DNA of 64,000 nucleotides from a virus, in UHGV virus genome UHGV-0326727; one strand, written 5' to 3'. A model generated the notes under the pieces. It ran no database searches. It worked only from the letters and a program-made list of their open reading frames with translations, and was not told the DNA's origin. Position 1 is the stretch's first letter. Each line of letters opens with the position of its first letter. A program made the translations under genes and the position numbers. Of this stretch, positions 60,779 to 60,858 are shown piece by piece.

Positions 60779-60858
60779 GTGGGACGATGTTAAGACTCTA
60801 AGGCATGAGCAACGGCCTCCAAAACCGTTTCAAAGGGGTTCAACTCCTCCGTCCCATG
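60779..60858 (+). tRNA. tRNA-like gene with CCA (Trp) anticodon loop and oversized D region; possibly pseudo or noncanonical
   Basis: Acceptor gtgggac/gtcccat, anticodon arm acggc-ctCCAaa-accgt (C.A at 31-39), T-loop TTCAACT; D region about 7 nt too long; CCA encoded. Confidence 0.4.

Follow-up and report, generated by a model that had tools for sequence, protein, structure and literature searches.

In canonical tRNAs, two nucleotides (nt; positions 8 and 9) lie between the acceptor stem and the D stem. Allo-tRNAs have, in addition to their unusual acceptor/T helices, a long variable arm. The published tRNAs in which these helices divide as 8 and 4 base pairs (bp), denoted (8/4), are of the Ser, His, Cys, and Sec types, with none specific for Trp (PMC5389517, Mukai et al. 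2017). Among tRNA-Trp(CCA) variants, A9C, G24A (the Hirsh change), and the loss of one anticodon-stem pair promote read-through of UGA, also in Escherichia coli (PMC13092985). YrlA-type Y RNAs and other tRNA mimics have a tRNA-like T arm, D arm, and acceptor stem, arranged in a frame other than the standard one (Chen et al. 2014, PMC4201824). Here, we analyze an element at positions 60779-60861 (+ strand) of the virus genome UHGV-0326727, the 64,000-nt stretch referred to below as the window. Judged from the sequence and its relatives, with a probability of about 0.68, this element is a real, functional gene for a structurally non-canonical tRNA-Trp(CCA), conserved across Felix-O1-like phages.

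Architecture of the Trp-like element

The window belongs to a Felix-O1-like myovirus (Ounavirinae), and the element lies within its tRNA cluster, in a 236-bp region that is 99.6% identical to Escherichia phage JH2 and to many other Felixounavirus genomes. ARAGORN identifies 24 tRNA genes in the window, all on the + strand between 58867 and 63205, and the set includes neither a Trp nor a Cys tRNA. The program is silent between tRNA-Arg(TCT) (60560-60636) and tRNA-Ser(TGA) (60875-60964), which is the gap occupied by the element. At 83 nt, including an encoded CCA, the element is longer than E. coli trpT (76 nt). The acceptor stem, T arm, anticodon arm with CCA anticodon, and encoded 3' CCA reported in a preliminary description of this locus are all found in place. 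Its 3' boundary at 60858 requires correction to 60861 because the CCA occupies 60859-60861, after the discriminator G at 60858. The parts of the element are as follows; conservation refers to 21 distinct variants collected from GenBank phages, IMG/VR, and metagenomes (an earlier alignment held 14 sequences).

60779..60861, + strand: whole gene of the putative non-canonical tRNA-Trp(CCA); 110 bits with the family covariance model R1, and cloverleaf covariation
60779-60785, + strand: acceptor stem 5' strand GTGGGAC, 7 bp with G1.U72 (G60786 is a possible eighth pair with C60850)
60786..60795, + strand: extended connector GATGTTAAG plus unpaired A60795; unpaired in RNAalifold, nearly invariant
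60796..60809, + strand: D arm, stem CTC/GAG of 3 Watson-Crick pairs, loop TAAGGCAT with G18G19
60810, + strand: single C between D arm and anticodon arm, from the sequence
60811..60829, + strand: anticodon arm, 5-bp stem AACGG/CCGTT around the 9-nt CCTCCAAAA; compensatory changes in four of the five pairs
60819..60821, + strand: anticodon CCA, flanked by U33 (60818) and A37 (60822); invariant in 21/21 variants
60830..60834, + strand: variable region TCAAA, 5 nt, class I without a long arm; nearly invariant
60835..60849, + strand: T arm, 4-bp stem GGGG/CCTC, loop TTCAACT (T54, T55, C56, R57, A58); sequence and covariation
60850..60857, + strand: acceptor stem 3' strand, C followed by GTCCCAT (60851-60857); covariation
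60858..60861, + strand: discriminator G73 and encoded 3' CCA; invariant in all variants
60687..60890, + strand: spurious open reading frame (ORF) starting with GTG, not part of the feature; in-frame stops in relatives, no PHROG match

The stretch from the acceptor stem to the anticodon stem is 7 nt longer than in the 76-nt tRNA-Trp. This surplus had been described as an oversized D region; the extra length is real, but it is concentrated 5' of the D stem and is neither in the D loop nor spread across the D region, and the D arm that follows is otherwise ordinary. It takes the form of a 9-nt connector, GATGTTAAG, and an unpaired A between the acceptor and D stems, or of 7-8 nt with an acceptor stem counted as 8 bp. 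The latter reading depends on the pair G60786-C60850 (G8 with C65), without which A49 and C65 remain unpaired; this G-C pair is invariant, so that covariation speaks neither for nor against it. The acceptor and T helices may thus be readable as 8 bp plus 4 bp, not 7 plus 5. The anticodon helix, too, appears to have moved by one register. In standard numbering, position 26 forms a Watson-Crick pair with 44, C31 and A39 are unpaired, and the loop is the 7-nt CUCCAAA; this loop may be counted either as 9 nt or as 7 nt with a non-standard closing pair.

Set against canonical tRNA-Trp, represented by E. coli trpT and by the tRNA-Trp of Erwinia phage phiEa21-4, the element shares the loop CUCCAAA, G73, (A/G)1-U72, the D-stem 3' strand GAGC, G18G19, the T loop TTCRA, and a 5-nt variable region, and the phiEa21-4 gene likewise has C31.A39. 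The host tRNA-Trp ends in GCCA, as the element does. It differs in a 6-nt insertion that leaves an 8-9-nt connector in place of U8-N9, in a D stem of three Watson-Crick pairs, in a 26:44 pair that is Watson-Crick and covarying, in the unpaired 49.65 or else an acceptor stem of 8 bp, and in its place in the cluster (between Arg-TCT and Ser-TGA, as opposed to between Gly and Thr in phiEa21-4). With the (8/4) and (9/3) tRNAs and allo-tRNAs, it has in common the possible 8-bp acceptor and 4-bp T stem (a sum of 12 bp), the occurrence in phage tRNA clusters, and a tendency to be missed or mis-scored by standard searches, its best Rfam match being tRNA-Sec (PMC5389517). Unlike allo-tRNAs, it lacks a long variable arm, and its eighth pair is invariant. 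The text of PMC5389517 makes no mention of a "linker" or "connector."

We located the insertion by a deletion scan in which all 3-10-nt deletions across gene positions 6-34 were each run through ARAGORN. Only 6-nt deletions within 60787-60797 restored a call, and the call was always tRNA-Trp(cca), which bears out the earlier suggestion of an insertion. Removal of AAGACT (60792-60797) recreates GTTC...GAGC, the D stem of E. coli tRNA-Trp. The connector corresponds to U8-A15 of canonical tRNA-Trp; when the element was aligned by MAFFT to E. coli trpT and the phiEa21-4 gene, ATGTTAA came to lie opposite U8-A9-G10-U11-U12-(Y13)-A14-A15. The simplest history would be an ordinary phage tRNA-Trp that acquired 6 nt in the 5' strand of its D stem, possibly by local duplication, given the 8-nt distance between TAAGAC and TAAGGC. 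The inserted bases would then supply a new D-stem 5' strand, CUC, leaving the old U8-A15-like strand AUGUUAA as a single-stranded connector. Intermediates and more distant relatives were sought in IMG/VR and metagenomes, and these returned just the same insertion-bearing family (a first IMG/VR scan, which used a 14-mer, had returned mostly chance matches).

In the window, both the old and the new 5' strand could pair with GAGC. The old D stem (connector GUU with AGC, alignment columns 11-13:32-34) is broken in 6/21 variants, whereas CUC/GAG covaries. A tRNA-Sec-like 6-bp D stem (AUGUUA/UAA..CAU) was rejected as well: its UUA/UAA half is lost in Wc4-1, and its AUG/CAU half is broken in PC79-13 and humlepung. 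The connector itself shows two single-base variants among the 21 sequences and is more conserved than the stems. By inspection of the homologues, no consistent complement to it was found in the leader, the trailer, or other loops; TAAGAC could pair with GUCUUA in the 3' trailer, but P778 and SUSP2 do not conserve this pairing. As a repeated motif, the connector has one exact copy in the window, without enrichment. Its role may be to maintain the tertiary contacts usual for U8, A9, and G10 or to bind a protein.

Covariation, homology, and distribution

The cloverleaf tested against the 21 variants had stems of 8 bp (acceptor), 3(+1) bp (D), 5 bp (anticodon), and 4 bp (T), for a total of 21 pairs and 441 stem cells. 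Of these cells, 99.5% hold standard pairs. Double-sided changes occur in 8/21 pairs, spread over all four helices, and fall to zero when the 3' partners are slid by 1-3 columns; the covariation score is not reached by any of 500 shuffles. RNAalifold, unguided, predicts the same cloverleaf and leaves the connector unpaired. In the acceptor stem, alignment pairs 1-82, 2-81, and 3-79 vary yet stay paired (AU/GU/GC, UA/CG, and GC/GU, respectively). The middle D-stem pair changes from U-A to A-U in 6/21 variants, with every cell paired, and the outer T-stem pair from G-C to U-A in the Sf15/Moogle group, while the loop consensus TTCRA is invariant. The anticodon stem exists in three fully complementary versions, AACGG/CCGTT, GTAGG/CCTAC, and GTAAG/CTTAC, so the alignment is not an artefact of very recent common descent. 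Its covarying pairs are 26-30:40-44, and 31/39 is always C.A or C.C across the family. These comparative data place the cloverleaf far beyond chance. The element had been described as a tRNA-like gene with a Trp anticodon, and both parts of that description hold, with a cloverleaf kept by compensatory changes around an invariant CCA.

The positions that never change are those expected to matter for decoding and charging. U33, C34-C35-A36, A37, G73, the CCA end, G18G19, and T54-T55-C56-A58 are invariant in 21/21 variants, whereas positions 32 (C/U) and 38 (A/C) vary, as do the stems, around the fixed U33-CCA-A37. Fixed decoding and identity nucleotides amid moving neighbors are what one would expect from a tRNA that decodes, as opposed to a copy in decay. 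The anticodon C34-C35-A36 (21/21) and the discriminator G73 are those of tRNA-Trp identity. For E. coli tRNA-Trp, A1-U72 and the second and third acceptor pairs belong to the identity set too. Pair 1:72 takes three forms in the family: A-U (13 variants), G.U (6, the window among them), and G-C (2). The element has G3-C70, and at 2:71 it has U-A instead of G-C. The rate of change resembles that of the neighboring genes: element identity between the window and the Pectobacterium and Yersinia phages is 74-76%, and orthologous canonical tRNAs have a median of 70-71%.

Among near-identical Felixounavirus copies, the loop flanks toggle between C32/A38 and U32/C38 (60816-60824 in the window), with further forms in other lineages. 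Diversification of the anticodon loop in phage tRNAs has reportedly been proposed, in one study, as a means of evading anticodon nucleases, which this switching recalls.

Homology to tRNA-Trp is also direct. The covariance model R1 matches canonical tRNAs along the entire length of the model. Among its non-self matches, the highest score goes to the annotated canonical tRNA-Trp of phiEa21-4 (37.5 bits, over the full length), a Kolesnikvirus from the same subfamily as the phages that carry the element. The two genes have CGGCCTCCAAAACCG in common, including the C31.A39 mismatch. By BLAST, the 3' half of the element also matches annotated tRNA-Trp genes of unrelated phages.

BLAST matched the element in 236 phage records, each with at least 80% coverage, and in metagenomes as well. 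Its hosts are Felixounavirus, Mooglevirus, Suspvirus, four Pectobacterium phages, and one Yersinia phage, and the element is conserved in Felixounavirus, Mooglevirus, Suspvirus, and the Pectobacterium/Yersinia-phage lineage of Ounavirinae. Among the 100 records listed, the site is either unannotated or labeled "hypothetical protein," and none annotates a tRNA there. The distribution is complementary to that of canonical tRNA-Trp. Phage phiEa21-4, with 26 annotated tRNAs, has the canonical gene and lacks the element. The complete genome of JH2 (26 tRNAs by ARAGORN) and Wc4-1, from the most divergent lineage (24 annotated tRNAs), each cover 19 amino acids, with only Trp missing, and carry the element. 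Sf14, with 26 published tRNAs for 19 amino acids and none for Trp (PMC12482277), carries it too, and for Felix O1, the published table of 22 tRNAs is likewise without Trp (PMC3185647). This presence of the element where canonical tRNA-Trp is missing, and its absence where the canonical gene is present, is the strongest argument that it would do the job of tRNA-Trp.

Annotation of these clusters is uneven. The RefSeq record of JH2 (NC_029023) has zero annotated tRNA genes, although ARAGORN finds 26, and other records (e.g., EcSzw-2 and P778) leave the cluster without tRNA annotation or place small hypothetical ORFs over tRNAs.

Other structures in the tRNA cluster

One kilobase upstream of the element, the gap between tRNA-Asp and tRNA-Lys(TTT) (59704-59858, + strand) contains a tRNA-like module that is unannotated and circularly permuted and is carried by a long closing stem. 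In order, its parts are a hairpin, ATTTCT-CCGGTAA-AGAAA, a T arm, GAAGG-TTCGATT-CCTTC (59765-59781), a closed acceptor-like hairpin, ACTCGGC-AGAT-GTCGAGT, and a D arm, GTGTAATGGTAGCAC; its flanks, AGACCGTT and AACGGTCT, pair with each other in the predicted fold. The acceptor-like hairpin covaries among relatives (ACTCGGC/GTCGAGT, ACACG/CGTGT, and ACCCTTC/GAAGGGT). A 22-bit tRNA match was the only Rfam result for the module, and the YrlA model gave no match. Its architecture appears to fit the description of YrlA-type Y RNAs (PMC4201824). Adjoining the cluster is a 471-amino-acid ORF (57286-58701, + strand) with DUF2828, DUF7788, and a weak vWA domain, the JH2 homologue of which is named "RNA-binding protein" in RefSeq. 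No sequence match to Ro60 or Rsr was found in a comparison with the PDB. The helical N-terminal part combined with vWA, and the Y-RNA-like neighbor, suggest a candidate Ro60-like protein.

The gap between tRNA-Ile and tRNA-Arg(TCT) (60239-60559, + strand) is a candidate for an unannotated structured RNA. It opens with a near-consensus sigma-70 promoter-like sequence, TTGACA-17-TATAGT (60239-60267), and the approximately 290 nt that follow fold unusually stably (z = -5.35, with 0/200 shuffles as good). The section at about 60395-60520 is conserved as far as phiEa21-4. For the gap, the only Rfam matches are weak ones of the tmRNA type. Long, near-perfect hairpins on the + strand at 60520-60559 and 61130-61219, ending in ...CTTTAAAGATTAAT and ...AAAAAGATTTAAT, stand directly 5' of tRNA-Arg(TCT) and tRNA-Leu(TAG), and a similar motif precedes tRNA-Leu in phiEa21-4. 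These hairpins may be processing or termination signals of the cluster.

Closer to the element, at 60680-60717 (+ strand), a 21-nt motif, TAAGGAGGTGGTCTGTATCTC, is followed by a hairpin of variable sequence. The motif has the same sequence in the window, Citrobacter phage Michonne, and the distant phiEa21-4, where its copy (24412-24445, locus L136) comes before the Gly-Trp-Thr tRNA run. The window contains it once, and no conserved ORF follows the Shine-Dalgarno-like AAGGAGG.

In Michonne (approximately 1234-1352, locus L002) and, at the same relative position, in Yersinia phage P778, an extra unannotated RNA-like piece of about 120 nt lies between tRNA-Arg(TCT) and the Trp-like element; the window has no such piece. 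In this piece, GGTCAAG...CTTGACT is the acceptor-type pairing, the T arm is GTAGG-TTCGACT-CCTAC, and GCCA is present; it could be a further tRNA-like gene of non-canonical form. A long, unannotated tRNA-like stretch also sits within the gap that follows tRNA-Arg in phiEa21-4 (approximately 23878-24046, locus L136). In it, GGTGATT pairs with AATCACT, GAGAGGTTCGAATCCTTA forms the T arm, and the end is CGCCA; the R1 score at 23959-24044 is 19 bits.

Function, alternative explanations, and implications

As a tRNA-Trp, the element would be transcribed together with the tRNA cluster, trimmed at its 5' end by RNase P (consistent with the U at position -1 in all homologues) and at its 3' end by exonucleases back to the encoded CCA, charged by the host tryptophanyl-tRNA synthetase (TrpRS) via the anticodon CCA and G73, and used to decode UGG. 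The resulting tRNA set would cover all 20 amino acids.

Several observations weigh against this assignment. ARAGORN makes no call for the element even at 80% stringency (-ps80), and at relaxed thresholds, it gives just a nonsensical call with a 4-base anticodon. The sole Rfam match is tRNA-Sec, with 23 bits against a gathering threshold of 47. Three helix-end positions are never paired in canonical numbering (A10.C25, C31.A39, and A49.C65), and two single metagenome variants have one T-stem mismatch each. A plain decoding role does not account for how little the connector varies. We are not aware of any natural elongator tRNA functioning with 8-9 nt between its acceptor and D stems, and acceptance of this shape by TrpRS, EF-Tu, and the ribosome is putative. 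A literature search found no RNA-seq or tRNA-seq of these phages.

The single sequence on its own is weak evidence for the element: its folding energy is unremarkable (z = -1.5). A scan for sigma-70 promoters passed none directly upstream. The element stays below the detection thresholds of ARAGORN and Rfam, and its connector exceeds the 2 nt of class I tRNA (RF00005). The Rfam match does not carry over into tRNA-Sec identity. Sec tRNAs have a long variable arm, an 8/5 (13-bp) acceptor/T helix, a 6-bp D stem, and at least 47 bits with their model (RF01852); the element has the anticodon CCA and not UCA, a variable region of 5 nt, a T stem of 4 bp, a D stem of 3 bp, and 23 bits. By function and descent, the element is best read as a tRNA-Trp that falls outside the formal cloverleaf definition in its connector and in the detector thresholds.

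The rejection by gene finders and Rfam, the folding z-score of just -1.5, and the hypothetical proteins that some GenBank records annotate over the site might together point to a decaying tRNA-Trp pseudogene, a chance resemblance, or a real gene in the GTG-initiated frame 60687-60890. We regard this group of explanations as extremely improbable. Neutral decay, one of the options offered in the preliminary description alongside an insertion and a non-canonical tRNA, is excluded because the cloverleaf covaries; compensatory changes affect all four stems with 99.5% pairing, conservation equals that of the neighboring bona fide tRNAs, and the anticodon and identity nucleotides are invariant. The other two options both stand. 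The frame, already suspected of being spurious, is interrupted by stops in seven of eight relatives (Michonne, EcSzw-2, SUSP2, Sf15, PC79-13, Wc4-1, and P778) and has zero PHROG family matches, on which grounds a protein-coding reading was rejected.

The element could instead be a tRNA mimic: a decoy or inhibitor of a tRNA-Trp-directed nuclease, of TrpRS, or of a defense sensor, or else a processing or punctuation signal of the cluster, with the connector as its functional site. The connector, unpaired in RNAalifold and more conserved than the stems, would be in keeping with such a role, as would the several departures from canonical architecture and the presence in the same cluster of another tRNA-like, clearly non-decoding RNA, the permuted YrlA-like module at 59704-59858. 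The element does resemble YrlA-type RNAs and tRNA mimics in its tRNA-like T arm, D arm, and acceptor stem within a non-standard frame, but the acceptor stem of YrlA is closed and an anticodon is missing, whereas in the element the acceptor ends are free, G73-CCA is present, and the anticodon loop is conserved. A pure mimic or signal would have no need to keep U33-CCA-A37, G73, and the encoded CCA invariant from genus to genus, and the complementary distribution with canonical tRNA-Trp would be left without explanation; we therefore consider a non-decoding role unlikely. Less likely still is a recoding tRNA, in which the remodeled hinge (8/9 connector, D stem, and unpaired 31.39) would let CCA read the near-cognate UGA as Trp. 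The element has the same species and anticodon as the UGA-reading tRNA-Trp(CCA) variants and is altered in the same regions, namely the 8/9 connector, the D stem, and one end of the anticodon stem (PMC13092985). Those variants, however, carry point changes or have lost 27:43, at the top of the stem, with a 7-nt loop, whereas the element has a 6-nt insertion, a top strengthened by the 26:44 pair, and an open bottom at 31.39; the bottom-open class was explicitly outside that study. The 4-bp-stem tRNA-Trp(CCA) of the Blastocrithidia-like kind differs in the same sense, the stem top of the element being paired and extended by 26:44. That kind goes along with in-frame UGA codons. TGA is an ordinary stop in the window, where it ends 26/90 long ORFs, an ordinary share, with no striking in-frame extensions behind.

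If the element is, as we favor, a non-canonical tRNA-Trp(CCA), its insertion could be adaptive and not merely tolerated, with the remodeled hinge yielding a Trp adaptor of altered behavior. We hold this to be doubtful. The features in question are the long, conserved connector at 8/9, the newly supplied strand of the D stem, and the anticodon helix, which is shifted and open at 31.39. Speculatively, such a tRNA might be invisible to a host nuclease or defense system aimed at the single-copy host tRNA-Trp: E. coli has a single tRNA-Trp gene, which makes an odd-shaped, phage-borne replacement a candidate countermeasure to tRNA-directed defenses. An equally speculative form, by analogy with the Hirsh, A9C, and 4-bp-stem variants, is that UGA would be read besides UGG. 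Were either form true, this would be the first natural long-connector tRNA working in bacterial translation.

Hundreds of genomes have been sequenced for Felix O1 and its relatives, classic phages for typing and biocontrol, and their tRNA sets have repeatedly been reported to cover 19 amino acids; in the literature, we found no description of the element or of any tRNA-Trp in Felixounavirus. The gene described here would complete the set, correcting the inventory of 19 amino acids, and it belongs in the annotations of these genomes. More generally, censuses based on tRNAscan-SE and ARAGORN can overlook functional-looking tRNAs that are one short insertion away from the standard form. The element would also provide a natural test of how much distortion TrpRS, EF-Tu, and the ribosome tolerate, at the hinge where mutations in tRNA-Trp alter decoding fidelity.

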